From Caldisericia bacterium (GTDB taxonomy: Bacteria; Caldisericota; Caldisericia; JAAYUI01), in contig JAGOOK010000002.1 of assembly GCA_017992555.1 (NCBI GenBank), forward strand, positions 21,180 to 85,179: a DNA stretch of 64,000 nt, given 5' to 3'. Under the pieces are notes generated by a model, which worked only from the letters and a program-made list of their open reading frames with translations, made no database searches and had not been told where the DNA came from. The translations under genes were made by a program, and so were the position numbers. Below, one piece after another: positions 24,100 to 63,382 of the stretch; positions within the stretch are counted from its first letter, which is position 1; the number at the start of each line of letters is the position of its first letter.

Positions 24100-24531
24100 A
24101 TGTGGAAGAAAATCCTTGTTCAAGGCGTTTTACTAGCGCTTATGATATTGGCGTTTTTTCGCCTATATCTCTTTGCTTTCAACAAAGATGTCATATACGC
24201 TTACACCAGCATGAAGGAGTTTGCTGGTTTTATCCTGATTGCCGTTGTACTCAATTATCCTGTTTGTTATTTGTACAAGCGAATTTTCAAGAAACAAATT
24301 GAAAAAGACCAGGCATCACTCTATTCTAAAAGCTGGTTTGTCAGATTGGTTTGCGGGTTTGTTGTCATATTACTTGATTTATTTGTAATATATTTGTTCA
24401 ATGGTTTTGAACAAACAACTTTTGTTGCAGTATTGGTTATTTTTGTCGTATCATATGGGCTATTTGCCATATACGCCGTAATCCTTGAGTTAATAACAAA
24501 TATCTTGATGGTGGTAGAGAAAAGTAGTTGA
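24100..24531 (+). CDS. small 3-TM membrane protein, tandem paralog 1 of 4
   Basis: It carries the MWKKILV start and the shared core YLYKRIFKKQIEK...LYSKSWFVRLVCGFV...LFNGFEQT. Confidence 0.6.
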   Translation: MWKKILVQGVLLALMILAFFRLYLFAFNKDVIYAYTSMKEFAGFILIAVVLNYPVCYLYKRIFKKQIEKDQASLYSKSWFVRLVCGFVVILLDLFVIYLFNGFEQTTFVAVLVIFVVSYGLFAIYAVILELITNILMVVEKSS

Positions 24532-24532
24532 T

Positions 24533-24593
24533 CTTTGTAAAACCTCACGGCCCAACACAAAAACATGATTGAACCGTGAGTCCGCAAATTGCC
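24533..24593. repeat. hairpin-containing repeat copy A (GATCTTTGTAAAACCTCACGG...CCGTGAGTCCGCAAATTGCC) fused to the stop codon of paralog 1
   Basis: A near-identical copy lies at 26065..26126, and the inverted-repeat arms are CTCACGG/CCGTGAG. Confidence 0.7.
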
Positions 24594-24658
24594 TTCCCTT
24601 CATTGTAGATCTTATGTTTGCTATTTTATAAAAAGAGGATTTTTTTATAATAAAAAAC

Positions 24659-25072
24659 ATGGGGAAGAAAAAAATCTTTCAATATGTTTTCTCGATATTT
24701 TTGATACTGGCACTTGTAATTGCTTATTTTCTTATCTTCAAACCGGCATCCCACATAAGCCTTAAGAACATCCTTTCTGACATTCTTTTTATAACGATTT
24801 ATCTTGCCATCTACTATTTGTATAAGCTAATCTTTAATGTAAAAATTGAACAGGGCCGTGTTCCGCTTTACTCCAGAAGATGGTTTATCAGGCTCGTTTG
24901 TGGATTTATTACCATTGCGTTTGCTTCGTTTCAGATATATCCATTGTTTAATGGTTTTGAGCAAACAAGTATCGACACAACCTTGATTGCTTTTGCCGCA
25001 TCATACGGATCGTTTATTTTCTTTGTTGGAGTTCTTGAGTTGATTTATTTGGAGATGAAAAGGAGTAATTAA
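24659..25072 (+). CDS. small 3-TM membrane protein, tandem paralog 2 of 4
   Basis: It carries the shared core LYSRRWFIRLVCGFITIAF...LFNGFEQTS. Confidence 0.6.
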   Translation: MGKKKIFQYVFSIFLILALVIAYFLIFKPASHISLKNILSDILFITIYLAIYYLYKLIFNVKIEQGRVPLYSRRWFIRLVCGFITIAFASFQIYPLFNGFEQTSIDTTLIAFAASYGSFIFFVGVLELIYLEMKRSN

Positions 25073-25095
25073 ATGTTTTTTTCAATCTCTACCCT

Positions 25096-25117
25096 CTATT
25101 GCAGGTATTGTAGAAAG
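25096..25117 (+). promoter_or_regulatory. conserved 22-mer CTATTGCAGGTATTGTAGAAAG, promoter-like, upstream of paralog 3
   Basis: An identical 20/22-mer lies at 25578..25599. It is followed by TATATAAT about 8 nt before the ATG. Confidence 0.45.
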
Positions 25118-25131
25118 TATATAATAAAAAC

Positions 25132-25554
25132 ATGTGGAAAAAAATTCTTGTTCTAAGCGCTTTTATTATAATTTCGATACTAATACTTTACTTCATTAGG
25201 TATTTCATTTTCGCACTTTGTCTCACGTTTCTCCAAATTTGCGTAAAAAATGTCTTTTTTATTGCTATTGCCATGCTGATTTATTTCCCAATTTACTGTT
25301 TATACAGAGTAGTTTTCAAGATAAAAGATGAACAGGGCCACGTGCCACTTTATTCCAGGAGCTGGTTTATAAAGCTTGTTTGTGGGTTTGTTACTATCGC
25401 GTTTGATTTATTTTTTATCCATCCGCTATTTAATGGTTTTAAGCACTTGTATATTAAAATTAGTTTAATTGTTTTTGTCACGATTTATATTTTGTTTATT
25501 ATATATGTTGGAGCTTTTGAGTTGGTTTGTTGGGTGATGAAAAAGAGCAATTAA
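25132..25554 (+). CDS. small 3-TM membrane protein, tandem paralog 3 of 4
   Basis: It carries the MWKKILV start and LYSRSWFIKLVCGFVTIAF...LFNGFKH. Confidence 0.6.
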   Translation: MWKKILVLSAFIIISILILYFIRYFIFALCLTFLQICVKNVFFIAIAMLIYFPIYCLYRVVFKIKDEQGHVPLYSRSWFIKLVCGFVTIAFDLFFIHPLFNGFKHLYIKISLIVFVTIYILFIIYVGAFELVCWVMKKSN

Positions 25555-25577
25555 GCATTTTTTTGAATTCCCACCTT

Positions 25578-25599
25578 TTATTGCAGGTATTGTAGAAAG
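25578..25599 (+). promoter_or_regulatory. second copy of the conserved TTATTGCAGGTATTGTAGAAAG element, upstream of paralog 4
   Basis: It is identical to the core at 25096..25117, and a TATAAT box lies at 25611..25616 just before the ATG at 25623. Confidence 0.45.
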
Positions 25600-25622
25600 A
25601 GAATATTTTGTATAATAGCAAT

Positions 25623-26066
25623 ATGTGGAAAAAAATCCTTGTTCTAAGCATTTTATTGGCGATTGTTCTTATGGCATTTTTGAATTTATGTGGCCGTGCT
25701 TTATTTAATGATGACGTATATGCTTGTATTAGAACAAATGAATTTCCTGTTTTTATACTGTTTGCCGTTTTATCCGGTTGTCCCACTATCTATCTATACA
25801 AGCGAATTTTCAAAAAAAAGATTGAAAAAAATCCAACATCGTTTTATTCCAAAAGTTGGTTTATAAAGCTTGTTTGCGGGCTTGTTGTTATATCGACTGA
25901 TATAATTTTGATCTATCTCTTACGCAGTCATCGACATCCCATTTTTACAGAGATATCATGGGTTATCTTTATATTATCGTATGGGTTATTTGCCACATAC
26001 ACCATAATGACTGAGCTGATAAATAATATTTTGGTGACGCTAGAGGCCATAGAGAAAAATGGCTGA
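25623..26066 (+). CDS. small 3-TM membrane protein, tandem paralog 4 of 4
   Basis: It carries the MWKKILV start and FYSKSWFIKLVCGLVVIS. The track ORF starts upstream at 25608. Confidence 0.6.
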   Translation: MWKKILVLSILLAIVLMAFLNLCGRALFNDDVYACIRTNEFPVFILFAVLSGCPTIYLYKRIFKKKIEKNPTSFYSKSWFIKLVCGLVVISTDIILIYLLRSHRHPIFTEISWVIFILSYGLFATYTIMTELINNILVTLEAIEKNG

Positions 26067-27749: not shown

Positions 27750-29084
27750 ATGGGCTTTAGGTTTTCAAAATTTATTATTGCCAAAGAATTGGATGAAAAT
27801 AAATATGTTTTGATGTCTACAATATCCGGTTCCATAGTCGTAATTGATAAAAAGCTGATCGGTCTTATAAACAGTGGCAATTTACCGGAAGAAGAGAAAA
27901 TATACAAGGAATTGTCAAATGCGTTCCTGTTAGTTGACGAAAATTTTGATGAAAAATCTTTTCTGCTTAAAAAATTTTCCAGAGAAACATGGAAAAATGA
28001 TACCCTTGATGTAACGATAGCTCCATCTTTTGCGTGTAATTTTGCTTGTCCGTACTGTTATGAGGCTAGAGATGATCGCGTCATGGATGAAGGAACATTA
28101 AAAAATCTGGTCAAGTTCATTCAAAATCATTTAAAAGAGTTTGATATTGGTTATTTTGTCATGGCTTGCTATGGCGGGGAACCTCTTTTATTTTCTGACC
28201 ATTTCCAATATATCTATGAGGAAATTTCAAAAACGAATCCTTCGGTAAAGATATCTCCGAGAATGACCACCAATGGGTCGTTGCTGGGGAAAAAGCTTGG
28301 TGGATTCATGGAAGCTGTGCCATTGGAAAGGGTACAGGTGACAATACACGGGGACAAAAAGAACCATGATTCAAAAAGGTTCTACATAGATGGAAAACCA
28401 TCCTATGAAGATGTTGTGAATGGAATAGGGGAGGCAATCAATAGAAAGATCCCAAATATTGAGATCAGGGTGAATATTGATCTGGAGAATGTCGCATCAT
28501 TGGAAAACCTCTTGACGGACTTGGGTAGAAGGGGGTTTTCAAACCATGAAAATTTGCGTGTTTACGCTTATCCTGTTGTCCACATGACTCCGGAATCCCT
28601 CGGATACGAAAACAAGTGCCTGTCTATTGACAGTTACTTTGAAAAGATAACTGGAATCATTGAAATAATCAATTCTTATGGTTTTTGTGGGGGAGCTAAA
28701 CATATAAAAAAATACATAAAAAATCTTGTGTTGTCAAATCTTTGTGGTGTTGGCACAAAGGGTTTTTATACAGTATCACCCGATGGCGCAATCGGGACTT
28801 GCTGGGAATTTATTGGGAGAGAAGGTTTTGATATAGGAAATGTGAATTTCAGCGTGCCCATTGACTGCATGAAAGAAAAGGTGTGGATTGATGCAAGGAT
28901 CTCAAAGGTCAAGCGTTGCTTGGATCTTGAATGTCCTCTTGTTCCAAGTTGTGCTGGTGGATGTGTGGCACAGAGTTTTTCTGAAAGAGGAAGTTTAGGC
29001 GAACCTGCTTGTTTTAAAAAACCGGAACAGATCGCAGAATATCTTAGATTCTATGTGGATATGAGCATGAAATATCCAATCTGA
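27750..29084 (+). CDS. radical SAM enzyme with N-terminal RRE-like extension and C-terminal SPASM/twitch Cys-rich domain (peptide-modifying maturase)
   Basis: The CxxxCxxC motif (CNFACPYC) is at about residue 95 rather than the N-terminus, and the ~90-aa N-terminal region is PqqD/RRE-like. C-terminal Cys clusters are present (CGVGTKG...GTCWEF, CLDLECPLVPSCAGGCVAQ). Confidence 0.8.
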   Translation: MGFRFSKFIIAKELDENKYVLMSTISGSIVVIDKKLIGLINSGNLPEEEKIYKELSNAFLLVDENFDEKSFLLKKFSRETWKNDTLDVTIAPSFACNFACPYCYEARDDRVMDEGTLKNLVKFIQNHLKEFDIGYFVMACYGGEPLLFSDHFQYIYEEISKTNPSVKISPRMTTNGSLLGKKLGGFMEAVPLERVQVTIHGDKKNHDSKRFYIDGKPSYEDVVNGIGEAINRKIPNIEIRVNIDLENVASLENLLTDLGRRGFSNHENLRVYAYPVVHMTPESLGYENKCLSIDSYFEKITGIIEIINSYGFCGGAKHIKKYIKNLVLSNLCGVGTKGFYTVSPDGAIGTCWEFIGREGFDIGNVNFSVPIDCMKEKVWIDARISKVKRCLDLECPLVPSCAGGCVAQSFSERGSLGEPACFKKPEQIAEYLRFYVDMSMKYPI

Positions 29085-29101: not shown

Positions 29102-29560
29102 TTACCCCACCTCCTCCACCTTGCCATCCTTGTGGAGCATAAGTTTGATGCCTTTGTTGATGAAGACCTCCTTGATCAGCTCGCTGTGCGGGTAGTCGTC
29201 ATGGTAATGGAGCTCTTCAAGGTTTGGAAAAGTGTTTGCAATGACTTTTGCACAGTGAAAGCACGGCAGTGTTGTGCAAAAAATCTGGGTAATGTCTTTT
29301 CTTGGCCCCTCATATCTCGAGATTGCATTGATTTCGGCGTGAATGACCGGGCATTGCCAGAGGTCTGATCCGGAAGCCAGGAGCTCCCTCTGACATGTGT
29401 CGCAGTGGGTCATTCCTGCCACAACACCGTTGTAGCCAGTGGCCTTTATGTTGCCGTCTGAATCCACCAGCATACAGCCGACCTGGCGCCTGAGACATGT
29501 TGACCTTTTGGCAACGATGTCCGTTATCATCATAAAATATGTTGGTTTGTCTGGTCTCAT
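29102..29560 (-). CDS. dCMP deaminase (ComEB-like cytidine/deoxycytidylate deaminase family)
   Basis: The zinc-binding motifs HAEINAI and PCFHCAK are present. The likely start is MRPDKPTYFMMI at 29560, whereas the track ORF begins at 29608. Confidence 0.8.
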   Translation of the reverse strand: MRPDKPTYFMMITDIVAKRSTCLRRQVGCMLVDSDGNIKATGYNGVVAGMTHCDTCQRELLASGSDLWQCPVIHAEINAISRYEGPRKDITQIFCTTLPCFHCAKVIANTFPNLEELHYHDDYPHSELIKEVFINKGIKLMLHKDGKVEEVG

Positions 29561-31206
29561 GGTTTTGCCGGATACGTTATCACTACTGTTTTGGTTGCCG
29601 CTTTCCATTCAATGGATGCGCCAAGCGCCTCTGTTATGAATCTTGTCGGTACAAATGTCGAGCCACCAATGACTTGTGGCGGAGGACTGACTGAAACCGG
29701 TTTCCCGTCTACGGATGCAGTTGTCTTGCCAATCCACATCTCTACTTTCTTGCCCTCAAGCATGTATGTGACTTTTTTGGTCTGGTCGTCCCAGCCGATG
29801 TCTGCGCCCAGGCTTTCACCAAGAAAGCGGAAAGGAACAAATGTCTTGCCGCTTATGATGACTGGCGCCTGAGGCAGGGCATTCTTTTTCTCTTCGCCAT
29901 TTACCCAGGCATTTTTGGAGCCAACCATCAGGATCACGGTGGTGTAGGCGGAGAAACTGACCTTGTATGTGAATTTTGTCTGGTTGCCACCCGGGTCAAA
30001 TACTATGACGGTGATTGTGTTGGAGCCGACCCTTAGCACTGTTTTGGCCTGGAATTTGCCATCCGGGTCAATTATTGCAAGTTCCCCGTTTACGATTATC
30101 TGGGAGTTTGGCTCGGCAACGCCAGTCACATCCAGCACCTGCGTCCTTGTGACCAGCCCATCCTTGAGGTTGACGACGGGTTTTATTGGGTTTGGCATGA
30201 CCATTATCTCGTTTGAGGCATCGGAGAGGTTGCCATTCTGGTCGACCGACTTGATTGTGTAGTAATAGATCAGGCCGTTGGTGACATTTGGATCGGTGTA
30301 TTGCGTGCCAGTGACATAGAAATCGGTTATTGCAACATCCGTATAGATTCCTGGGTTATTTGACCTGAATATGTAGTAGCCAACAACATTTGGTGATGCG
30401 ATTGGCTTCCAGAATAGGTGGGCCCTGCCATCTCCAGGGTAGCCAACGAATATTTCTGGTATGGATGGTGCAGGAGAACCAGCGATTACAGTCAGTTTGA
30501 CTGGAACTTCAATGACCGGCTGTTTTTCATCATTGGATGTCACGATGATTGTTGCGAATTGGTCGCCTGGCGGTAGACCTTTTGCCGACGCTTTTATCTG
30601 TATTCCTGTATTGTTGCCCGGGGAGACTATGCCGTTTGTTGGATTGTATGAAAGCCAATCCTTGATTGTTGTTGTGGCCACCTGGAGAATGACCGGCACC
30701 TGAACAAGGCCAGCATTTGATGCCAGAATGACGTTTCCCCTGTAAAGCTGTCCTGTGACCATCCCGTCGAGTTTGACGGTCACTGTGACAGAAACAACCG
30801 TTTTATCGATATTGCGTATAAGACATTTTATCCATTCTACATCACTTGAGGCCGTGACCTGGAGATATTGCTCCGTTGGGGCCGTGCATGTAACGGTTTG
30901 TGATACCTCGCCTTTGGGTGGCACAGTTCCGAAATCCAGGAAACTGGGATAAACCAGCATGTTCCCATCTGGCGATGCCAGAGGCTGTGTTTTTGCCTTG
31001 CTGTAGGACTTTGAGAGCGAAAACAGGAGGGAGCTGGAACCCCTGTTGAAGATGCCCATTGTGGCTGTTGCCGTTTCACCCTGCTTCGCAACGATGTTGA
31101 TTTCTTTTGGAGAAAGCTCGATCAGTTTGTCATCCTGAGAGAGGGCAGTTTGAAAACACGGCATTATTACCAGAGCACACAACAAAAAAGCTGTCAGTTT
31201 CTTCAT
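29557..31206 (-). CDS. secreted cell-surface protein with fibronectin-III-like module and two C-terminal copper-amine-oxidase-N-terminal-like (stalk) repeats
   Basis: A signal peptide is present, and the duplicated motif TFVPFRFLGESLGADIGWDDQTKKVT / TFVPTRFITEALGASIEWKAATKTVV is typical of Firmicutes wall-associated domains. Confidence 0.6.
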   Translation of the reverse strand: MKKLTAFLLCALVIMPCFQTALSQDDKLIELSPKEINIVAKQGETATATMGIFNRGSSSLLFSLSKSYSKAKTQPLASPDGNMLVYPSFLDFGTVPPKGEVSQTVTCTAPTEQYLQVTASSDVEWIKCLIRNIDKTVVSVTVTVKLDGMVTGQLYRGNVILASNAGLVQVPVILQVATTTIKDWLSYNPTNGIVSPGNNTGIQIKASAKGLPPGDQFATIIVTSNDEKQPVIEVPVKLTVIAGSPAPSIPEIFVGYPGDGRAHLFWKPIASPNVVGYYIFRSNNPGIYTDVAITDFYVTGTQYTDPNVTNGLIYYYTIKSVDQNGNLSDASNEIMVMPNPIKPVVNLKDGLVTRTQVLDVTGVAEPNSQIIVNGELAIIDPDGKFQAKTVLRVGSNTITVIVFDPGGNQTKFTYKVSFSAYTTVILMVGSKNAWVNGEEKKNALPQAPVIISGKTFVPFRFLGESLGADIGWDDQTKKVTYMLEGKKVEMWIGKTTASVDGKPVSVSPPPQVIGGSTFVPTRFITEALGASIEWKAATKTVVITYPAKP

Positions 31207-39440: not shown

Positions 39441-39950
39441 TTAGGTGTGTCTTGTTACCTTGAAACGCTGTAGCTGGACTGGGCCATCATCATATATTCC
39501 AGCTTTTCTCCTGGCTATCGCCACCTGCTGTTCTGCTGTGTCAATGCCCTCGAGGTCAGGCAGGAGAAGGCCCCTTCTTGGTCCCCTGTAGACTATCACC
39601 CCATAGGTCTTTGGATCAAGCTGTGCAATGTTGTCTATTGGCTCAGGCGAGCTAAGCACATCGACATTTATTTCAAGTTTGTCCAGCTCGTTTGGCCTGA
39701 CAGGCATGAACCTTGGGTCCTGGGAACATGCCTCAATAGCCATCTCGATTATCTCGTGGGCGATATTGGCTGTTGTTGGCAGGAAGGTCCCTATACATCC
39801 CCTCAGATCGCCATCTTCGTGTATTGAAACGAAGACACCAGCTCTCCCCTTCATGTTTTCGGGGATTGGTGCCGGTGTCTCTATTGCCTTTTTTTCGAGG
39901 ACCCATGTTCTTACTGCTTTTCTGGCCAGCTCTACAAACTCATCTGGCAT
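39441..39950 (-). CDS. AMMECR1-domain protein
   Basis: The LRGCIG motif is present at the expected length. Confidence 0.8.
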   Translation of the reverse strand: MPDEFVELARKAVRTWVLEKKAIETPAPIPENMKGRAGVFVSIHEDGDLRGCIGTFLPTTANIAHEIIEMAIEACSQDPRFMPVRPNELDKLEINVDVLSSPEPIDNIAQLDPKTYGVIVYRGPRRGLLLPDLEGIDTAEQQVAIARRKAGIYDDGPVQLQRFKVTRHT

Positions 39951-47249: not shown

Positions 47250-48380
47250 TTAATTGCTCATCGGGGCAAAGAACCTGGCAACCAGGGCTGTATTGTCAGT
47301 TTTTCTGTAATGACAGTTGGCCTTGAGGAGCTTGCAAACATCAAGAAATGGAACAAAAGGCCCGGTGTCTGTCATGAATGGGGGCTCGGACAATTCAACT
47401 TCCTTGCCATTAACAAGTGCCTTTTTGCTGTCCTTGGTCAATGTCAGCTTTACCAGTTCAACCTCTGTGGTTTTGATATTGCACAACCTTTGGATTGTAT
47501 ATGTTTCACCATCACCCGTCATTGGTGCAAAGAGCACATCGGAAAGAAATTGTAGATCAATGAATGGCGTGTTGCTTTCGGACAACACGAGTGCGAAATC
47601 AGTGTAGGCATACTCAACAGTGTTGATTACTACTTTTGGATCTTTTGCGCTGAGCCAGAGATACCCGGCACCACTTTGACGGTTTATATATGATGCCTCA
47701 CCAAGCATTGCAAGACCTGGAATTTTGTAATAGTCATAGCATTCAGGATTGAGTGCTTCCCTCCGTTCCACCTGGTATTTGTACCCGTGGTATGCCTGCA
47801 CCTCAAAGTTGTAGTCCTCATCAAGGTAACTGATTGAACCAACTGGATAGATCTTGTCCGATCCCGAGATATAGTGGTTCATTGGGCCATTTCTATCAAT
47901 ATCTTTTCCAAAAAGATTATATCTCCATTTGTAATAACTGTCATCTTCTTGGAAGAACATTCCCAAAGCAATCCGGCCCTGTGGGCCATCAAGCTTGCCA
48001 AAAAGCCGCCCACTGGTAATTATCTTTTCAGCTTTTTTTACGATGTCCTTGTCTGCCGGATCAACCTTGACCGGTGATCCATATTCATCCAGAATGGGTG
48101 AATAGTGTTTCCCGGTCTCGTCTTCTACAACTTCAAATTCATAAAATGTGAGTTTGCCTTTTTCATACGAAAGCATTGGCGTGGGTTTTTTGAAAGACCA
48201 GAATGAACCACCAGAAAATGACCTATATTCATATGCGATTATCGTAAAAGGGTCCTGTGGCCAGATCATTTTCTGGATGCCAAAACTGGGTCTGGAATAT
48301 GGGATGGCAATAATTGAAAAGACAATTAGAACCAGAATAGATTTCCTTAAATTAATAATTGCAATCATTTTGCCCTCCAT
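47250..48380 (-). CDS. secreted hypothetical protein, tandem paralog A (C-terminal copper-amine-oxidase-N-like stalk domain)
   Basis: A signal peptide is present, and the conserved C-terminus reads ...CKLLKANCHYRKTDNTALVARFFAPMSN. Confidence 0.5.
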   Translation of the reverse strand: MEGKMIAIINLRKSILVLIVFSIIAIPYSRPSFGIQKMIWPQDPFTIIAYEYRSFSGGSFWSFKKPTPMLSYEKGKLTFYEFEVVEDETGKHYSPILDEYGSPVKVDPADKDIVKKAEKIITSGRLFGKLDGPQGRIALGMFFQEDDSYYKWRYNLFGKDIDRNGPMNHYISGSDKIYPVGSISYLDEDYNFEVQAYHGYKYQVERREALNPECYDYYKIPGLAMLGEASYINRQSGAGYLWLSAKDPKVVINTVEYAYTDFALVLSESNTPFIDLQFLSDVLFAPMTGDGETYTIQRLCNIKTTEVELVKLTLTKDSKKALVNGKEVELSEPPFMTDTGPFVPFLDVCKLLKANCHYRKTDNTALVARFFAPMSN

Positions 48381-48474
48381 GGACTATTGGTTTCCAATGT
48401 ATTAAACGAACCAGAAGGCAAAACAGTTCGAAGAAATTTTTGTTGAAGCACTTATCTATATTACATTGAGGGGT

Positions 48475-49590
48475 TCATTCACGCATTGGGGCAAAAAACC
48501 TGGCGATAAGGACTGCCCCGTCAGTACCACGAATATGACAATTGGCCTTAAGAAATTTGCATGCATCAGCAACGGGAACATATAGTCTATCGTTTATTAT
48601 TGTGGGAGCTTCTGATAAATCTTTCTCGACACCATTTACCAGCACTTTTTTGCTATCTGCAGTGAATTTCAACTCAACAAGCTCAATTTCGGAACTTTTG
48701 AGTTGGCACAATCTTTTTATGGTGCAGGATTTGCTGTCATTATAAATCATTGGAGAAAAAAGCACTTCCGAGAGAAAGCGAATATCAATCAGCATTTCAC
48801 CGCTCATCTCCCTTCTTGATGTTAACGCGTTTTCGGCCCATTCGCGTTGTTGCCCGGCGAGACAATATTTGCCAGGCCCATATCCTGTTTGAAGATAGCC
48901 CTGGCCAAAATCATATCTACTATAAGATATTTCAGCCATTCCATCCAGACCAGGATATTCATGAATATTGCACAAATCGGGATTAAATGCCTCGGCCCTT
49001 GTTCTTTGGTGCATTACGCCATAGTATTCGTAGACCTCAAAATTGAAGTCATTGTCTACGATTGAGAAAGTGCCGTAGGGATATATTTTATCGCGCATGG
49101 AGCCTGCTCGATTGAAGTAATGATGCTCTGGAAAATCCAGTGAATATCTAATATATTCCCAACCCCTGTCGCCCAGGAAAATCCCAAGTGCCACTTCCTT
49201 AAAGTTTTTGCTATTGTTGCCAATCTTTGCATTTATCATGGGAGACAAACAGAGCAGGATTTTTTCAATAATCTTGGGATCATTTTGTTTGATTTTGATA
49301 GGGTTGCCATTTTCATCGAATTTTGGGGCTACAATATTTGTCCCATCTTGATCTTTTATCTCGAATTCAAAAAAAGTTATGGCTCCTTCATAATACCTGA
49401 AAAGTGGCGATGGCTCCTTGTACTCGATTTTTTGTGGCCCATCATACCCGTATGCCACAATATCAAAATACCTGTCGCGAGTGTTGAAATATTTTTCACT
49501 CAAACTGGCAGTTTTGCCGGCACCTGTTGGATTGAGCACAAAAAACATTGAAATTACAATGGCAATCAGAATACTTACAATTTTTCTCAT
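48475..49590 (-). CDS. secreted hypothetical protein, tandem paralog B
   Basis: It is alignable to paralog A throughout and ends ...CKFLKANCHIRGTDGAVLIARFFAPMRE. Confidence 0.5.
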   Translation of the reverse strand: MRKIVSILIAIVISMFFVLNPTGAGKTASLSEKYFNTRDRYFDIVAYGYDGPQKIEYKEPSPLFRYYEGAITFFEFEIKDQDGTNIVAPKFDENGNPIKIKQNDPKIIEKILLCLSPMINAKIGNNSKNFKEVALGIFLGDRGWEYIRYSLDFPEHHYFNRAGSMRDKIYPYGTFSIVDNDFNFEVYEYYGVMHQRTRAEAFNPDLCNIHEYPGLDGMAEISYSRYDFGQGYLQTGYGPGKYCLAGQQREWAENALTSRREMSGEMLIDIRFLSEVLFSPMIYNDSKSCTIKRLCQLKSSEIELVELKFTADSKKVLVNGVEKDLSEAPTIINDRLYVPVADACKFLKANCHIRGTDGAVLIARFFAPMRE

Positions 49591-49727
49591 CGTTCCTCCT
49601 GTAATTCCCAGTTTTTTCAGACATGTTTATTATAAGCAAAACCTTGCTGTTGCAATATCGAAAATATCCTCACAGTCATATATAACAAAACCTTCTAATA
49701 CTTTATGATAGTTTTTTAATCAGTGGA

Positions 49728-52709
49728 TCAATCTGTTTCTTTGTAACAGACCAGATTTTTACCCTCAGAATTGAAGATAATTCCATCAATGACGCATGGT
49801 GTTTTGAGCTCCCCAATGGGAATGTTAAAAGCCCCTCTTTTCCTTGTTTCTATAATTTTTTGCATATTGAGCCAGCCTGTTTTGCGCAATTTCCATTTTG
49901 TTTTGCCAGTTGATGCATCTATTGATTGTAGGTAACTGCCATTTTTTATAAAAATGCTGTTGCCAAACCATTTTGGAACATCATTTTCAAATCTATCTTC
50001 CCCAGATGTGCATTCCTCAAGTTCAGCATTGCCAAGGGGTTTGCCATCAAAAAACCATGAAAGATAGTTTTCGCTTATAAAAATTGTTTTCTGCCCAATT
50101 ACTCTTGCTTCACCTCTGCCTGTTGCTTTCCAGATAAGCTCCCATTTTTTCATATCAATGCAAAACACATCGACGAATTGACCTTGGTCATCATATTGCA
50201 GGTCATTGATAAAAAGATTATTGTTTTCAGTACTCCATCTCACGTACCAATTGAATTCTTTTTTAAAGAGAGCTTTCCCATTTTTCGGATCTAAAACATA
50301 AAGGTCAATTCCACCAGCTTTATCGTCACCATTGCTGTTCCGGTATATTATGAAACCATTTAGAATATCTGCGCTCAATATTATTTTATGGGATTTCTCT
50401 TGCCAGATAACCGATCCATCCTTGTTGTTTAGGCAATAAATACCATATGTGTCAAAAAAATATAGCATGGTGTCGCTTTCGTTTATTGCCTCAGGTATGC
50501 CGATAATTTCGAATGACCATAAAACTTTTCCTGTGACTGGATCAATTCTTACAAGCTTATGCTGCTTCGTTTCTTCTTTTTGAAAATCATCGCTGATGTT
50601 TATATCAGTTAAGTATAAATTTTTGCATTTCCCCTGCCCTAGATAGTCAAGATAAAATCTTTTTGTTTTCCAGAGAATCTTCCCCTTGGCGTCGTAACAA
50701 ACTGTTTCTTTCAATTCGTCTTCACTGCAATCAAATTTTAAAAAATATTTGCCATTCTTTATAAATACAGGAGTTACATAAGCATAATCTGGAACTTTTA
50801 CTGAAGAGCATAATGTTTTTCCTGTATCCAGACTGAAATAGGTTACAACGCGATTTTCATTGGACAGATATTCATCTTCTGCCCATGGCTCCCCGCCGTT
50901 TCTTTTCCATTTGAGTTTGCCATTTTTTGTATCAATAGATACCCATAAATCATCTTTGCCTTCAGCTTTCAAACGGAGAACCAGATTGACTCCATGCATT
51001 ATTACATCCTCTATTGGCATGTTTTTTGGGGCTACTTGGCTTAGTTTCAAGGACCACGCTTGTTTGCCAGTTTTAAAGTTCACAGACTCAATGGTTTTAT
51101 CTAGAGCTTTAAGATCAGATTTGATATTTACAAGATTACTCCCAAACAAATGAAAATTAAAACCCTCTGTTTCCCATATTTTCTTCAATTTTTCTTTGCA
51201 ATCGGTTTTTCTTGTTGTTTGGATGGCCAGTTTGATTTCCTGGTTACAATTTGTGGTCACCGTTATTTCCTCTGTGGATATGTCCGGTTCGTCCTTTTTT
51301 GCACAATATCTGACCATTATTGTTTTTTCATTCTCAGGATTCAGCGTTACTGATATTTCGCTCAATATGACATGATCGGAGGAGGATTTTAATGAACACT
51401 CAACAATTGCCGATGGATTGTCATTCTTTAGAACAAAATTTGCCTGTTCTTCTTCAAAAGGGCACACCTCAAGATTGATTGTGTCGTTTTTGGTTTTTTC
51501 CCAAAATGTTTCGATCTTGCATTTGCATGGATTGCAAAGAGAATATTTTGCAAAAGAATGTTTTTTCGCCATATAAATATTGTCGTTTTTGATTAGTGTT
51601 TTTTCTATATCTCGTTCCGCAATAGAGCTTAATTTCTCACCATTCTCTATGTTATAAATATAGATGTCATTTTTTTGAATGTATAAATATTTGTCATCCA
51701 AAGACAATATTTTCCCATAGGGGTTATCTATCTCCCACAATTTTTCCTCATTCTTGAAAGAGAAGAGGACCAATGATTCCCGTGAGTCGTAAACTATATG
51801 TTTCTCATTGTATACGATTTGTCTATCATAAAGCGTATCGAATTCTATGGAAAACTTTTTGAGACCATCTTCAGTTGAATAACATTCTAGTAAATTATCA
51901 TTTTTTGCCGCCAGAATCCATGAATCAGTTGATTGCATCCACAAGAGCAAATTCAGATATGTAATGTCTGAAAAATCATCTTCAAAACGAAATACTTCTG
52001 ACCATGCTTCTTTCAGGTTGTTGTTTTCATCAATATCAAAACAGCGAAGATGATTTTTCTTCCCGATGACAATCTTATTGTTTAATACTTTTATGGTATT
52101 GTAATCCAACCCCTCCTTACGAGTTTGTTTTATGTCGGGCGCTTTATTTGTTGAAATTGAATTTAGATCAATTGTTTTGATTTCGCTCCCAGATTCTGCA
52201 TCGATAAAGGTTATTTTTTCATCACAATACACAAGTAGGTTATTTCCTCTTCTTTCAAAAAAAGGATATGTTTTTTGGGGTTTAATTTCTTTTTGCCACA
52301 TTTTTTTGCCATCAAGGGTGTAGCAAATAACAGTTATATTGTTGGATCCCATTAAAGTCATATTCATTGCTACAACATAATTATTGATAATGATTGGTTG
52401 CCAGCTAACTCCAAAAGAATCGAATTTTTCTTTGCTAGACCATTTGATCTTTCCATTCTCAATGCACATTAGTGCATTGTCTGCTCCACCCCAAAAATCA
52501 TCATTAATTCCATAAACAAGTCCATCATCGGATACAGTAGGAATAAGACTTATATATTCCTCACTGCTTGTCTCCCAATCTTTTATTGCTCCTAGATCAC
52601 TTGCCGAGATTGGGCTGATGGTTTGAATTCCACACAATTGAAAAGTGAAAATAATCAAAATTATTTTGGTAATAAAACCTTTTCCTGCACCCATATCAAT
52701 CCTCCGCAT
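49728..52709 (-). CDS. very large (993 aa) secreted beta-propeller repeat protein (PQQ/BamB-like repeats)
   Basis: A signal peptide is followed by multiple repeats of the type ...YCLNNKDGSVIWQEK / ...ILWKTKR. Confidence 0.45.
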   Translation of the reverse strand: MRRIDMGAGKGFITKIILIIFTFQLCGIQTISPISASDLGAIKDWETSSEEYISLIPTVSDDGLVYGINDDFWGGADNALMCIENGKIKWSSKEKFDSFGVSWQPIIINNYVVAMNMTLMGSNNITVICYTLDGKKMWQKEIKPQKTYPFFERRGNNLLVYCDEKITFIDAESGSEIKTIDLNSISTNKAPDIKQTRKEGLDYNTIKVLNNKIVIGKKNHLRCFDIDENNNLKEAWSEVFRFEDDFSDITYLNLLLWMQSTDSWILAAKNDNLLECYSTEDGLKKFSIEFDTLYDRQIVYNEKHIVYDSRESLVLFSFKNEEKLWEIDNPYGKILSLDDKYLYIQKNDIYIYNIENGEKLSSIAERDIEKTLIKNDNIYMAKKHSFAKYSLCNPCKCKIETFWEKTKNDTINLEVCPFEEEQANFVLKNDNPSAIVECSLKSSSDHVILSEISVTLNPENEKTIMVRYCAKKDEPDISTEEITVTTNCNQEIKLAIQTTRKTDCKEKLKKIWETEGFNFHLFGSNLVNIKSDLKALDKTIESVNFKTGKQAWSLKLSQVAPKNMPIEDVIMHGVNLVLRLKAEGKDDLWVSIDTKNGKLKWKRNGGEPWAEDEYLSNENRVVTYFSLDTGKTLCSSVKVPDYAYVTPVFIKNGKYFLKFDCSEDELKETVCYDAKGKILWKTKRFYLDYLGQGKCKNLYLTDINISDDFQKEETKQHKLVRIDPVTGKVLWSFEIIGIPEAINESDTMLYFFDTYGIYCLNNKDGSVIWQEKSHKIILSADILNGFIIYRNSNGDDKAGGIDLYVLDPKNGKALFKKEFNWYVRWSTENNNLFINDLQYDDQGQFVDVFCIDMKKWELIWKATGRGEARVIGQKTIFISENYLSWFFDGKPLGNAELEECTSGEDRFENDVPKWFGNSIFIKNGSYLQSIDASTGKTKWKLRKTGWLNMQKIIETRKRGAFNIPIGELKTPCVIDGIIFNSEGKNLVCYKETD

Positions 52710-59082: not shown

Positions 59083-60270
59083 TTACCAGACTTTCGCACC
59101 AGTGGAAGCTTTGAGACAAATTGTCTCCTGACCTACAGTGGCAGTGCTTCTTGATGTCACTACAACGTAGTCATTGGTGGTGGCTGGCCTGCAGGACGTT
59201 ATGCCGCCAACGCTTGTTTTCCAGACTTCTTTGAGATTCTGGTCAAGACAGTAAATGATGCCGTTATCAGTTCCAAAGACAATGTTCGAGCCCTGGACAG
59301 CAGATGGCGAGCTATTTACGTAATCATCAGTCTTGAAGTATTCGAGTTTGGCGCCTGTTGAAGCATCCAGGCAGTACATTCCGTTACCTTTGTCGCTTAC
59401 AGCCTGCGCACCAATAAAGACTCTTCCATTAATGACCAGTGGTGTTGATTTGCACCATCTGACATTGTTGTCGTAGAAGCTCCATACCTTTGTGCCTGAG
59501 AGAGCGTCAACCTTATATACACAACCATCGAGGGAGCCAAAATATAGATAGTAATTGTCGCCTTCCTTGACAAGGTTTGTGTCACATTCAATTGGCCCAC
59601 CGTCATTGTATGGGTTTGCTGGATTGGGCCCCTTTCCGTCGGTCTCAAAAAAGGCGTTTTTCCATATTTTGGCGTTTTTGCCAGTTGCAAAGGTTATAGG
59701 ATAAACTTTTCCTCTAATTGATCCTGCAAGCACAACATCTATTTTGTCAGTTTTAAGCCTTGCCGGTGTTCCATAAATCCATCCCTCGCCATCTTTCCAT
59801 TCCCAGACAAGTTTTCCATTCATATCAAAAGACATGATTGTGCCCTTACCAGAGTTGAAGCCGGTGGTACCCAAAATTATTCCGTCATCAAAAACCATAG
59901 GTCTGCTGTAATGAGCCTTCTCGACCTTGGCTTTCCAGACTTCCTTGCCAGTTGCAAGCTCCAGGCAAACCAGGAACCTGTATGGAGCTTCTGCCAGTGT
60001 TAAAACCTGGTAGACTTTGTCTCCGTGTATGGTTGGTGAGGTGTAAACCCTGTCAACCGTCTGGTAGGGTTGTGGCCATGCTGGACTTTTATCGCTAAGC
60101 TTGAATGCCATTATTCCTGTTTCGCCCTTTACACCAACAACGATGTCTCCTGAAATGGCAGGGTTTGTTGACTGCCAGAAGCCACCAGCATCAGTGAAAT
60201 TGCCTGTTGGAACGATAGTTAGCGCTGTGAGCGCAATGATCGCAATTATAAGGGAAGCGGTCTTTTTCAT
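59083..60270 (-). CDS. secreted PQQ-repeat beta-propeller protein
   Basis: A signal peptide and repeated KVW/EVWK blade motifs are present. Confidence 0.5.
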   Translation of the reverse strand: MKKTASLIIAIIALTALTIVPTGNFTDAGGFWQSTNPAISGDIVVGVKGETGIMAFKLSDKSPAWPQPYQTVDRVYTSPTIHGDKVYQVLTLAEAPYRFLVCLELATGKEVWKAKVEKAHYSRPMVFDDGIILGTTGFNSGKGTIMSFDMNGKLVWEWKDGEGWIYGTPARLKTDKIDVVLAGSIRGKVYPITFATGKNAKIWKNAFFETDGKGPNPANPYNDGGPIECDTNLVKEGDNYYLYFGSLDGCVYKVDALSGTKVWSFYDNNVRWCKSTPLVINGRVFIGAQAVSDKGNGMYCLDASTGAKLEYFKTDDYVNSSPSAVQGSNIVFGTDNGIIYCLDQNLKEVWKTSVGGITSCRPATTNDYVVVTSRSTATVGQETICLKASTGAKVW

Positions 60271-60481
60271 TTACAATGCCTCCAATTTGGACTTTTAACG
60301 ATTTTAAGGGTGAAAATTGTCACGTCAACTTGACCAGCGTAAATTCAAGGGAAAGCTAAAGATTTATGTAAAGTTTTTTACTTTTGATTTTGGACATTTT
60401 TCTGCTAATAGGCTTGGTTTAAGATTGTTTTTCGACACTCTGCCTTGAGTTTTTGACCCATATTTGGCAAAATGCAAAACC

Positions 60482-61861
60482 ATGAGTACTCTTTCGGGTT
60501 ATAAAGGTAAAGCGTTGTCTGTCCTCACCTCTTTTAACGCAAGAGTTTGGGCGGACGTTGAAATTGAGACCGATAAAGGCAACTTTAGAGGCATCATCTT
60601 GCCAAGATCGGAACAAGCCGACGACCTGCACGTTGTCGTCAAACTCCAGACCGGCTACAACATCGGCCTCGCGGTTGATGGCATAAAAGCGGTCAAGGAG
60701 ATTGGCTATAAGGAAGCCAAATACAAAATCCCGGAACAGGAATTCCCGTTTGACCCAAAAAAGCCAAACGTGACGCTACTTGGGACTGGCGGAACAATTG
60801 CATCCAGGCTTGATTACAGAACTGGTGCCGTTATCCCGGCTTTCACACCTGGCGAGCTTTATGGTGCAGTTCCCGAGCTTGCCGACATCTGCAACATGAA
60901 GACAGTAAAGCTCTTTGGTGTGTTCTCGGAGAATATGGGTCCAGAGCAGTACATAACACTTGCCGAGGCAATTGGCAGAGAAATATCAAACGGGGCTGAT
61001 GGGATTGTCATTGGCCACGGAACAGACACAATGCACCATACAGCGGCTTGCCTTTCATTCATGGTGCAAGACTCCCCGGTTCCGATTGTAATGGTCGGTT
61101 CGCAGAGATCATCTGACAGACCCTCATCTGATGCGGCATTTAACCTAAGGTGTGCAAGCCATGCGGCATCCCGCGGCCCTATTGCCGAGGTGATGGTCTG
61201 CATGTTTGGCCCAACCTCTGACTCATACAACCTCCTCCACAGGGGCACAAGGGTGCGCAAGATGCACAGTTCCTACCGCTCAACTTTCAGAACAGTGTCC
61301 GATATTCCGCTTGCAATGTGCACGCCAGACAGCGTGACCCCGCTCAAAAAGGAATACAAGAGAAGAAGGTCAGACCGCAACGTCAAAGTGGACGCAGTTT
61401 TCGATGACAAAGTGGCGATTGTTTATTACTATCCGGCAATGAAGCCCGACATCATCGATTCCCTTGTTGAAAATGGCTACCACGGCATAGTTATTGCCGG
61501 AACAGGTCTTGGCCATGTCAATAAACCGCTTTATGAGCCGCTCAGAAGGGCCGTTCAAGCCGGTGTGCATGTCTTCATGACCGTACAGACACTTTGGGGT
61601 TTTGCACAGATGTACGTTTATGACACCGGCAGGGACCTCATGGAGCTTGGCGTAATTCCGGCCGCCAACATGCTTCCAGAAGTTGCGTATATCAAACTCG
61701 GCTGGACACTTGGCCACACAAGGGACAGGGATGAGGTCATGAAAATGATGCTCACCCCAATAAATGGTGAAATCACAGAACGTGAGCCGCATGACGGTTA
61801 TCTCATTTTCCAGGGTGGACTGCCGGAAATTGAAGACTTCTTGGGCAAATATATCAGATAG
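60482..61861 (+). CDS. L-asparaginase type I family protein with GatD-like N-terminal domain (Glu-tRNA(Gln) amidotransferase subunit D-like)
   Basis: Asparaginase signatures LLGTGGTIAS and GIVIGHGTDTM are preceded by a ~90-aa N-terminal domain resembling archaeal GatD. The track ORF starts at TTG 60464. Confidence 0.6.
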   Translation: MSTLSGYKGKALSVLTSFNARVWADVEIETDKGNFRGIILPRSEQADDLHVVVKLQTGYNIGLAVDGIKAVKEIGYKEAKYKIPEQEFPFDPKKPNVTLLGTGGTIASRLDYRTGAVIPAFTPGELYGAVPELADICNMKTVKLFGVFSENMGPEQYITLAEAIGREISNGADGIVIGHGTDTMHHTAACLSFMVQDSPVPIVMVGSQRSSDRPSSDAAFNLRCASHAASRGPIAEVMVCMFGPTSDSYNLLHRGTRVRKMHSSYRSTFRTVSDIPLAMCTPDSVTPLKKEYKRRRSDRNVKVDAVFDDKVAIVYYYPAMKPDIIDSLVENGYHGIVIAGTGLGHVNKPLYEPLRRAVQAGVHVFMTVQTLWGFAQMYVYDTGRDLMELGVIPAANMLPEVAYIKLGWTLGHTRDRDEVMKMMLTPINGEITEREPHDGYLIFQGGLPEIEDFLGKYIR

Positions 61862-61876
61862 CGCAAAAAAGCAATT

Positions 61877-61925
61877 TATATCTCCTTATATGCTGATTTA
61901 TATCATATAAGGAGATATAAATTAT
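61877..61925. repeat. 18-bp perfect AT-rich palindrome TTTATATCTCCTTATATG...CATATAAGGAGATATAAA
   Basis: It lies immediately downstream of the gatD-like stop, within a 280-bp AT-rich spacer. Confidence 0.6.
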
Positions 61926-62143: not shown

Positions 62144-63382
62144 GTGAAAAGGATTCTTGTTTTTTTGATTTGTGGATTGATAGTGTTGACTGTGTCGGCA
62201 AACTCTGGCATTTGCATTGCTCCTCCGGTTTCAAAAAAAGACATCGCAAAACCAGTCCCCAAAGAGACCCAGAAGAAAATCTGGAAACTGGGCGACAGGA
62301 TTGTTCCTGGCCCCATCCCGCCATCACTTGGAGCACCGGAGCCAGCGCTGGACATCTGGCGCGGAGAGGTTTTTGGCAGGGAAGCCGGTCTTTCGCTCCA
62401 GCTCGATGTCATAAAGCCAAAAGCCTGCAGGGGCCAGACAGTCCCGATTGCGGTTTATTTCCATGGCGGTGGATGGCGGAGTGGCAACAGGTATGGAATC
62501 TACAATACAATAAGAGTCGAACGCAAACTCCTGTACCAGATGGGTTTTGCAATAGCAAGCGTCGACTACAGGCTCTCCCAGCAGGCAAAGCACCCGGCGC
62601 AGATCAATGACTGCAAGCTTGCGATCCGCTATCTTCGCAAAAATGCAAAGAAATTCGGCATTGATCCGAACCGGATTGGTGTCTGGGGCCATTCTGCAGG
62701 CGGCCACCTGGTTGCTTTCCTTGGAACGGCCAACGAAAAAGACGGGCTTGAGGGCCCAGGCCTCCCAGGAATCTCAAGCAAACCCCAATGTGTTGTAGAA
62801 CTGTATGGCCCGACCGACCTCACCCAGCCAGTGGGCGAAAATGGCTGGAGGGGCATAACCGAGGAACTGCTTGGGTGCAAGCCCAAGGTTTGCCTGGAAA
62901 AGGCCATCAATGCGTCGCCTGTCACCTATGCCGATAAAGATGACCCGCCAGAGCTGATAATCCACGGCGAAAATGACTCGGCAATCCTGTATCTTCAGGG
63001 TGAGTTGTTCGCAAGAAAATTGAAACAGGTTGGTGTCACATGCGCGCTGATAAAGGTCAAGAACGCGGAGCACCAGTTCACGCCGTACCCTGGCTATCTG
63101 AAAATCAGTCCTCCGCTGGCGAGGATCCGCTGGGTGATTGCCGCGCAGTTCTTCCGCTATCTGGAACCGGCGCTAAAGGGTGACCTGGATGTCGATGGAA
63201 GGGTCAACCTGAGGGACTTTGTCCTGATGTGCAAACAGAGCGGCTCTGTGGGCGCCGGAATGGACGGTTCGCCCGGGCCGGAGTGGTGGAACCCGATGGC
63301 CGATTTGAATTCAGACGGGCTGATTGATTTGAAAGATATGACGCTACTGCTGGGGATTGCTCTGCATACATCTGTAAAATAA
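62144..63382 (+). CDS. secreted alpha/beta-hydrolase esterase/lipase with C-terminal dockerin-like domain
   Basis: A signal peptide, the oxyanion motif HGGGW and the nucleophile elbow GHSAGG are present. The C-terminus carries two Ca-binding loop repeats, [10 protein letters not shown] and [12 protein letters not shown]. Confidence 0.7.

Follow-up and report, generated by a model that had tools for sequence, protein, structure and literature searches.

A gatD gene in a Caldisericota genome and the occurrence of gatD and gatE across bacteria

GatCAB is the amidotransferase expected in bacteria, and its GatA subunit is an amidase-family protein that needs GatC and is unrelated to GatD in sequence and fold. 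GatA and GatD have the same task: each is the glutaminase subunit that releases ammonia and supplies it, by way of a tunnel, to a tRNA-dependent kinase of the GatB/GatE type (PMC2330236). Reviews as late as 2022 describe the GatDE enzyme as restricted to archaea, an ‘archaeal signature protein’ (PMC2330236, PMC8762117, PMC9499178). The name GatD is also used in the MurT/GatD lipid II amidotransferase of Gram-positive bacteria, whose GatD belongs to the unrelated class I glutamine amidotransferase family and acts on peptidoglycan precursors (PMC6085368); it shares only its name and glutaminase role with the protein considered here. We describe a gatD gene in a 64,000-nt stretch of DNA from a Caldisericia bacterium of the phylum Caldisericota (assembly GCA_017992555.1, contig JAGOOK010000002.1, positions 21,180 to 85,179 of the forward strand), the whole of which is called the window below. 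The gene, at 60482-61861, very likely encodes the glutaminase/asparaginase subunit of a bacterial GatDE amidotransferase that would convert Glu-tRNA(Gln) to Gln-tRNA(Gln).

By every molecular criterion tested, the product of this gene is a GatD. The one feature of described GatDs that it lacks is taxonomic, its host being a Caldisericota bacterium and not an archaeon, and the data argue that an archaeal host is itself an outdated criterion, taxonomic rather than molecular. The assignment draws on the following features.

60482..61861, + strand: gatD coding sequence, 459 aa, stop included (open reading frame (ORF) list, NCBIfam GatD equivalogs, PDB GatD matches)
60554..60694, + strand: GatD N-terminal domain, residues 25-71 (Pfam PF18195 GatD_N, 48.7 bits, cut-off 25.7)
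60767..61339, + strand: asparaginase/glutaminase N-terminal catalytic domain, residues 96-286 (Pfam PF00710, E 3.3e-53)
60785..60796, + strand: TGGT motif, T102-T105, with T105 the predicted nucleophilic Thr (identical in 1zq1_A and 2d6f_A; T105 aligns with T11 of 1wls; codons checked)
61022..61027, + strand: T181-D182 in an HGTDT motif, part of the predicted Thr-Lys-Asp triad (conserved in 1zq1_A and 2d6f_A; aligned with T83-D84 of 1wls; codons checked)
61259..61261, + strand: K260, predicted triad Lys in an RKMH motif (conserved in both solved GatDs; aligned with K154 of 1wls; codon checked)
61409..61750, + strand: Asparaginase_C domain, residues 310-423 (Pfam PF17763, E 5.9e-32)

The ORF opens with the ATG at 60482 and closes with a TAG at 61859-61861. 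A TTG in the same frame at 60464 is an alternative start that would add 6 residues (465 aa in all); independent public gene calls also choose the ATG at 60482, with the same range to the stop. PF18195, PF00710 and PF17763 all score above their gathering scores, and a 94-aa N-terminal extension with GatD_N precedes the catalytic domain. The peptide KGKALSVLTSFNARVWADVEIETDKGNFRGIILP, quoted in an earlier note made on this DNA from its letters alone, corresponds to residues 8-41. That note had read the protein as one with type I asparaginase signatures and an extra N-terminal domain, in the manner of GatD and not of bacterial AnsA, and the model searches bear this out. The two NCBIfam GatD equivalogs are passed with room to spare (NF003217, 512 bits against a cut-off of 310; TIGR02153, 510 bits against 324), as is the broad asnASE_I subfamily model (377 bits against 260.5), whereas the AnsA equivalog NF006998 gives no more than 133.6 bits (cut-off 376).

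Structural matches point the same way. The best match in the PDB is GatD of Pyrococcus abyssi (1zq1_A, E 3e-122), followed by GatD of Methanothermobacter thermautotrophicus (2d6f_A, E 6e-119). The latter aligns from residue 6 and so includes the N-terminal domain, which together with the Pfam score identifies the extension as a relative of the GatD N-domain. Plain asparaginases give E 2.5e-42 at best, and the likeness to the solved GatDs is, at the level of sequence, far beyond chance. Much like the archaeal GatDs (1ZQ1, 2D6F), to which it aligns over its full length, the window protein has three domains, the catalytic Thr together with Thr-Asp-Lys, and a GatE partner in the genome. A Thr nucleophile and a Thr-Lys-Asp triad have been described for GatD (PMC2330236); the residue positions listed above were referred to the Pyrococcus horikoshii asparaginase 1wls. 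In a three-way alignment with 1zq1_A and 2d6f_A the window GatD is 48% and 46% identical to the two solved proteins, which are 58% identical to each other, and its 18-aa C-terminal tail lies beyond the alignment with P. abyssi GatD. The C-terminal tail is conserved (...FQGG.PE...). Type I L-asparaginases (P. horikoshii 1WLS, Thermococcus kodakarensis 5OT0, bacterial AnsA) share a homologous catalytic core (E 1e-36 to 1e-42) and matching active-site residues. They differ in having no counterpart of the GatD N-terminal domain of about 90 aa, and the window protein scores far higher on GatD models than on asparaginase models.

The window itself holds no recognizable gatE, as judged by tblastn with three bacterial GatE proteins (best E 0.8), in agreement with the earlier note, which had seen none beside gatD. 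A 593-aa ORF at 9953-11734, which has a size that fits GatE and adjoins a peptidyl-prolyl isomerase (PPIase) gene, was considered and set aside, having no Pfam match at E 1e-3 or better. The partner is found elsewhere in the genome, which was one of the two options raised in that note. Assembly GCA_039679615.1 carries the exact window GatD on contig JBDKUR010000038.1 and a 640-aa GatE (MEN6377915.1) on contig JBDKUR010000068.1. Paired accession series for GatD and GatE occur in three metagenome-assembled genomes (MAGs): MBP6926879/MBP6927683, MCE5177497/MCE5177235 and MEN6377179/MEN6377915. JGI metagenome 3300057060 also carries both genes. With the GatE of a Caldisericales locus (L011) as query, we recovered a 644-aa cluster, P0126, at 66% identity, which NCBI names as GatE of ‘Caldisericia bacterium’. 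Both solved GatE chains match P0126 along its entire length (E 1.6e-101 and 5e-97), and P0126 retains equivalents of the M. thermautotrophicus GatE residues H15, E157 and E184. These three coordinate Mg2+, and mutation of any one of them abolishes both kinase and transamidase activity (PMC2330236). Additionally, four bacterial GatEs from gatD-linked loci, L011 included, reach 490-566 bits with the GatE equivalog NF003107 (cut-off 456) and cover model positions 6-618 of 630 or more, tail region included. From its sequence, the GatE partner of the window species looks functional.

Why gatE should be missing from the window is suggested by gene order in related Caldisericota. The surroundings of gatD in the window are as follows.

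59083..60270, - strand: PQQ-like beta-propeller gene, divergent neighbour of gatD (Pfam PQQ_2 and Beta-prop_ACSF4; same arrangement in L100, a related Caldisericota genome)
60271..60481, + strand: divergent intergenic region 5' of gatD, 211 bp (sequence read directly)
61873..61923, + strand: perfect 20-bp stem with an 11-nt loop, 12 nt past the gatD stop (-24.6 kcal/mol, z -4.4, 0/200 shuffles fold as well)
62144..63382, + strand: BD-FAE-type esterase, 412 aa, downstream of gatD (Pfam BD-FAE, E 8e-55)

On a related 2.23-Mb Caldisericota contig (ERZ21869602:ctg94808c), whose GatD is 80% identical, the order is PQQ propeller (-), gatD, KAP NTPase (-), esterase of 396 aa, esterase of 393 aa and gatE; gatD and gatE share a strand there and are separated by 4.2 kb in which the two tandem esterases lie. 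The L011 locus (GatD 78% identical) reads gatD, a 482-aa gene (-), esterase and gatE. In the window species the gatD locus consists of the PQQ gene (-), gatD and the 412-aa esterase, and the gatE locus of UbiA, a methyltransferase, an esterase of 393 aa, a 70-aa ORF and gatE. Its two esterases are paralogs with 47% identity (tblastn with the L087 and L011 esterases), and BD-FAE-type esterase paralogs stand beside gatD or gatE in Caldisericota at window 62144-63382, L087:4474-5655 and L101:1578-3934. The simplest reading is that an ancestral linked cluster of gatD, esterase, esterase and gatE was broken between the tandem esterases in the window species, and that gatE is missing from the window because of this split.

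Beyond Caldisericota, a scan of GTDB species-representative genomes confirmed at least 594 stretches that encode close relatives, and the 80 best of these were used for the locus analyses. Among these 80 loci, 77 carry bacterial labels and 3 are labelled Thermoplasmata or Thermoplasmatota. The bacterial labels include Caldisericota, WOR-3, Stahlbacteria, Zixibacteria, Ignavibacteria/Melioribacter and other Bacteroidota, as well as Aminicenantes, Aegiribacteria, Fermentibacteria, Krumholzibacteriota, Planctomycetota, Myxococcota and Calditrichia. A protein search likewise returned more than 100 clusters at 72-98% identity to the window GatD, with WOR-3, Zixibacteria, Deltaproteobacteria, Edwardsbacteria, Spirochaetes, Clostridiales and Acidobacteria among the source names. 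An ORF of about 640 aa usually adjoins gatD in the 80 loci. By tblastn, gatE lies immediately upstream of gatD on the same strand in 52 loci, immediately downstream on the same strand in 3 and elsewhere within 10 kb in 8, and is not in the available flank in the other 17. The two genes thus directly adjoin on one strand in 55 of the 80 loci and lie within 10 kb of each other in 63, a gene order that establishes an operon organization in most bacteria that have the pair. On these numbers the pair is widespread in uncultured bacteria, and the statement in the earlier note that both of its options are uncommon in bacteria proves too strong.

No gatD neighbour other than gatE is conserved, the largest other family occurring in 9 of the 80 loci. 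A hidden Markov model (HMM) derived from GatE, run over all ORFs of the 80 loci (the loci only, not the rest of the genomes), found GatE alone, without weaker GatB-like matches. Neither the window nor the 87 loci scanned for tRNAs yielded a tRNA-Gln gene. Genes for transfer-messenger RNA (tmRNA) stand beside gatDE in two bacterial loci.

The two subunits are unevenly conserved. Across 666 genome pairs, drawn from loci with both genes (L009-L085), the median identity is 79% for GatD and 52% for GatE, and GatD is the more conserved in every pair. Among 121 bacterial-type GatD sequences, 48% of positions are at least 95% conserved. Possible causes of the imbalance are a strong constraint on the glutaminase and the tunnel, or a GatE that tracks different host tRNAs. 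Pairwise identities of GatD and GatE nevertheless correlate at r = 0.87 over the same 666 pairs, from which we infer that gatD and gatE are inherited together.

At two loci the subunits are or may be fused. P0270 (L099:9301-12132), called as a 943-aa protein in a bacterial-looking context, consists of a GatE catalytic core (GatB_N, residues 24-304) fused with a whole GatD; its GatE part has about 490 residues compared with about 640 in full GatE, and the tail region may be missing. In an Aminicenantes locus (L040:8633-11365), a partial GatB_N is in frame with GatD, which could reflect a genuine fusion or else a frameshift; gatE and gatD also occur in their normal form at another locus of this MAG (L034). 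The very long ‘GatD’ ORFs of L041, L068 and L075 were rejected as fusions: their N-terminal parts are without a domain and look like ORF over-extension in high-GC DNA.

The phylogeny of GatD bears on where the bacterial genes came from. A library of 50%-identity representatives contains 446 proteins that match the window GatD at E 1e-30 or better. Outside the core clade, its nearest relatives are P0269 (59% identity) and P0270 (58% identity), both in bacterial contexts; at the P0269 locus gatE lies upstream, and a tmRNA gene separates it from a two-component pair. Among named archaeal representatives, those from Sigynarchaeota, Thermococcus, Nitrososphaerota and Bathyarchaeia come closest, at 44-47% identity. 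We built a neighbour-joining (NJ) tree of 66 sequences with 200 bootstraps, taking three Thermococcales asparaginases as the outgroup to all GatDs; it is a distance tree and sparsely labelled. The clade of the window protein lies within GatD. This bacterial-type clade was recovered in 186 of the 200 bootstraps and was joined in 165 to a small group with a Sigynarchaeota sequence; it was sister to all archaeal GatDs in none. In comparison with archaeal GatD, the clade is thus separate and also unusually conserved, at the median of 79% identity between phyla given above. Since the bacterial clade is nested inside archaeal GatD diversity in this tree, an archaeal origin followed by spread in bacteria is favored, and the gatD/gatE pair would ultimately be of archaeal descent and long resident in bacteria.

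The three loci with Thermoplasmata or Thermoplasmatota labels (L032, L070 and L084) carry a bacterial-type GatD, 71-74% identical, in a distinct layout with gatE upstream on the opposite strand, 1.6-4.3 kb from gatD. One Thermoplasmata-type bin is a 5.16-Mb ‘chromosome’ with a glutamine synthetase gene between its gatE and gatD. For ten genes near gatD in these bins, Pfam gives domain-neutral families only (NrdD, HypF, glutamine synthetase, sugar enzymes). P0307, a GatD from a bin with a Thermoplasmatota label, is 45% identical and falls among archaeal sequences, so the three bins may be mislabelled or secondary recipients.

The neighbourhood of gatD in the window is bacterial by its gene content, as the earlier note had supposed. 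NCBIfam models recover GreA (196 bits, cut-off 145), the glutamate racemase MurI (197 bits, cut-off 147), a ValRS of bacterial type (1156 bits, cut-off 704) and the class II LysRS lysS_bact (586 bits, cut-off 428), together with a PhoB/OmpR-type response regulator and an adjacent histidine kinase. A parvulin-type PPIase is under every curated NCBIfam cut-off. Further genes around gatD encode, by Pfam, a fasciclin-domain protein, an M1-peptidase-domain protein, an APH-family kinase and a TspO-like membrane protein. The esterase downstream of gatD has a weak dockerin-like C-terminus (E 1e-3, under cut-off). A sigma-70-like match 5' of gatD (60317-60345, +) agrees with the consensus at 9 of 12 positions, which is weak evidence given that 7 such sites were found and 3.5 are expected. 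The hairpin past the gatD stop is a probable transcript end or stabilizer, without a T-run behind it and accordingly not called by a simple terminator scan. With this hairpin after the stop and a 211-bp spacer upstream, gatD looks monocistronic in the window.

The gene also appears to be at home in its genome. Its GC content is 0.50 and its GC3 0.55, resembling lysS and valS, and its codon usage is the 11th most typical among 30 long ORFs; the gene is not a recent import. Horizontal acquisition, as raised in the earlier note, therefore stands in part: an ultimately archaeal origin fits the NJ tree, and native composition and codon usage disagree with a recent arrival in this genome. In the genome-collection scan, a Caldisericota MAG contig (JAKPMO010000007.1) matches the window at 99% protein identity. 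The exact window GatD occurs with identical neighbours on contigs of 70-104 kb in at least 6 independent NCBI, JGI and Logan assemblies, so assembly chimerism is no issue.

Other parts of the window hold several gene groups of their own. Four tandem paralogous genes at 24100-26066 encode strongly hydrophobic proteins of 137-152 aa with similar N-termini (MWKKILV...), in the part of the window with the lowest GC content (0.32-0.37 at 22-26 kb). Several large secreted-looking proteins with PQQ-like beta-propeller, Ig-like and copper-amine-oxidase N-terminal (‘stalk’) domains are encoded at 47250-52709 and 29557-31206. They include a 993-aa protein and a pair of neighbouring paralogs (376 and 371 aa); a second region of low GC content (0.35-0.39) covers 48-54 kb, and proteins like this set recur near gatE and on related contigs. 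A homolog of AmmeMemoRadiSam system protein A (136 bits, cut-off 99) lies at 39441-39950, with a radical-SAM protein 10 kb away at 27750-29084.

Comparison of sequences establishes, for bacterial GatDE, family membership, the catalytic residues of both subunits, the presence of both genes in one genome and their co-inheritance. By analogy with the solved archaeal enzyme, a GatD homodimer would bind two GatE subunits. GatE would bind misacylated Glu-tRNA(Gln) and phosphorylate its glutamyl side chain with ATP, and GatD would hydrolyse Gln or Asn by means of the Thr105 nucleophile and the Thr181-Asp182-Lys260 triad. The ammonia would pass through an intramolecular tunnel to GatE, where the intermediate would become Gln-tRNA(Gln). 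Complex formation, the tunnel, the tRNA substrate and the place of the enzyme among the Gln-tRNA routes of the host are all proposed on this analogy.

Several points weigh against assigning the window gene to a bacterial GatDE of this kind. No biochemistry of any bacterial GatDE was found in the literature searched. Contamination of MAG bins is a possibility, but here the presence of the pair in three independent bins and the linkage of gatD and gatE on one contig in a relative argue against it. The identity elements that GatDE reads in tRNA(Gln) are A1-U72 and features of the D-loop, and bacterial tRNA(Gln) normally has a U1-A72 pair. GatDE is exclusively archaeal according to the reviews and recognizes the archaeal A1-U72 pair of tRNA(Gln) (PMC2330236, PMC8762117, PMC9499178), so the substrate rule of a bacterial GatDE would have to differ.

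This difference in tRNA is also the starting point for an alternative in which GatDE does form with another specificity or role: it may act on Asp-tRNA(Asn) as well, or on some other tRNA- or carrier-bound acyl substrate, or serve as a redundant or conditional back-up to GatCAB or GlnRS. A bacterial host tRNA set, set beside an archaeal enzyme that reads A1-U72 (PMC2330236), would leave room for such a change. The faster divergence of GatE, the tRNA-reading subunit, would fit adaptation to different host tRNAs, and the distribution within phyla looks patchy as judged from MAG labels. We nevertheless consider an altered role unlikely, given that the four bacterial GatEs match their equivalog nearly from end to end, tail region included, that the GatE of the window species keeps the Mg2+ ligands of the kinase, and that no conserved neighbour of gatD suggests another pathway.

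Much less likely is a GatD co-opted as a stand-alone asparaginase or glutaminase without GatE, the other option of the earlier note. The presence of gatE in the same assembly, with its catalytic Mg2+ ligands kept, goes against it, and the non-adjacency that might have prompted it, with no gatE inside the window, is accounted for by the break-up of a cluster that once linked the two genes. The protein keeps its asparaginase catalytic residues, as a stand-alone enzyme would, but it also keeps the GatD-specific N-terminal domain. A monocistronic-looking gatD with a strong hairpin past its stop would suit independent function, as would the name ‘L-asparaginase 1’ that one source gives to a GatD cluster member; co-variation of GatD and GatE across genomes would not, and the archaeal enzyme is without glutaminase activity unless Glu-tRNA(Gln) is present (PMC2330236). 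Least credible of all is the idea that a piece of archaeal DNA was placed in a bacterial contig by faulty assembly or binning. The archaea-only status of GatDE in reviews (PMC8762117, PMC9499178) and the three loci with Thermoplasmata or Thermoplasmatota labels could be cited for it, whereas the recurrence of the gene among the same neighbours in independent assemblies, its native composition, the GreA, MurI and bacterial aminoacyl-tRNA synthetase genes that share the window and the tmRNA genes beside gatDE in two other bacterial loci all speak against it. The assignment of the window gene as GatD of a bacterial GatDE amidotransferase is the reading that we retain.

For annotation, 60482-61861 is gatD and not an asparaginase gene, with its partner elsewhere in the genome; in comparison with archaeal GatD, the host is bacterial and gatE is unlinked in this species. 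Such bacterial proteins already receive the names GatD and GatE automatically in the NCBI and IMG pipelines, and no paper discussing such genes was found in the full-text literature searched. Bacterial GatDE is thus present in databases but unremarked, a known enzyme with an under-appreciated host range. The window locus is an ordinary housekeeping-type gene, and it is the broader bacterial pattern that would surprise a tRNA-synthetase specialist. If the bacterial enzymes are active, it becomes testable how GatE recognizes bacterial tRNA(Gln), whether the enzyme can stand in for GatCAB or GlnRS, and whether GatDE reached bacteria by transfer from archaea. We tentatively raise a further possibility, which we think somewhat more doubtful than probable, that GatDE was anciently acquired in Caldisericota and many uncultured phyla and is there the working, perhaps the sole, Glu-tRNA(Gln) amidotransferase, having displaced GatCAB or GlnRS, with GatE re-adapted to bacterial tRNA(Gln) and GatD almost frozen. 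If GatDE were indeed a main bacterial route, its status as an ‘archaeal signature protein’ would be overturned, and these lineages would offer a natural experiment on the reasons for which some cells retain one tRNA-dependent amidotransferase and others two.

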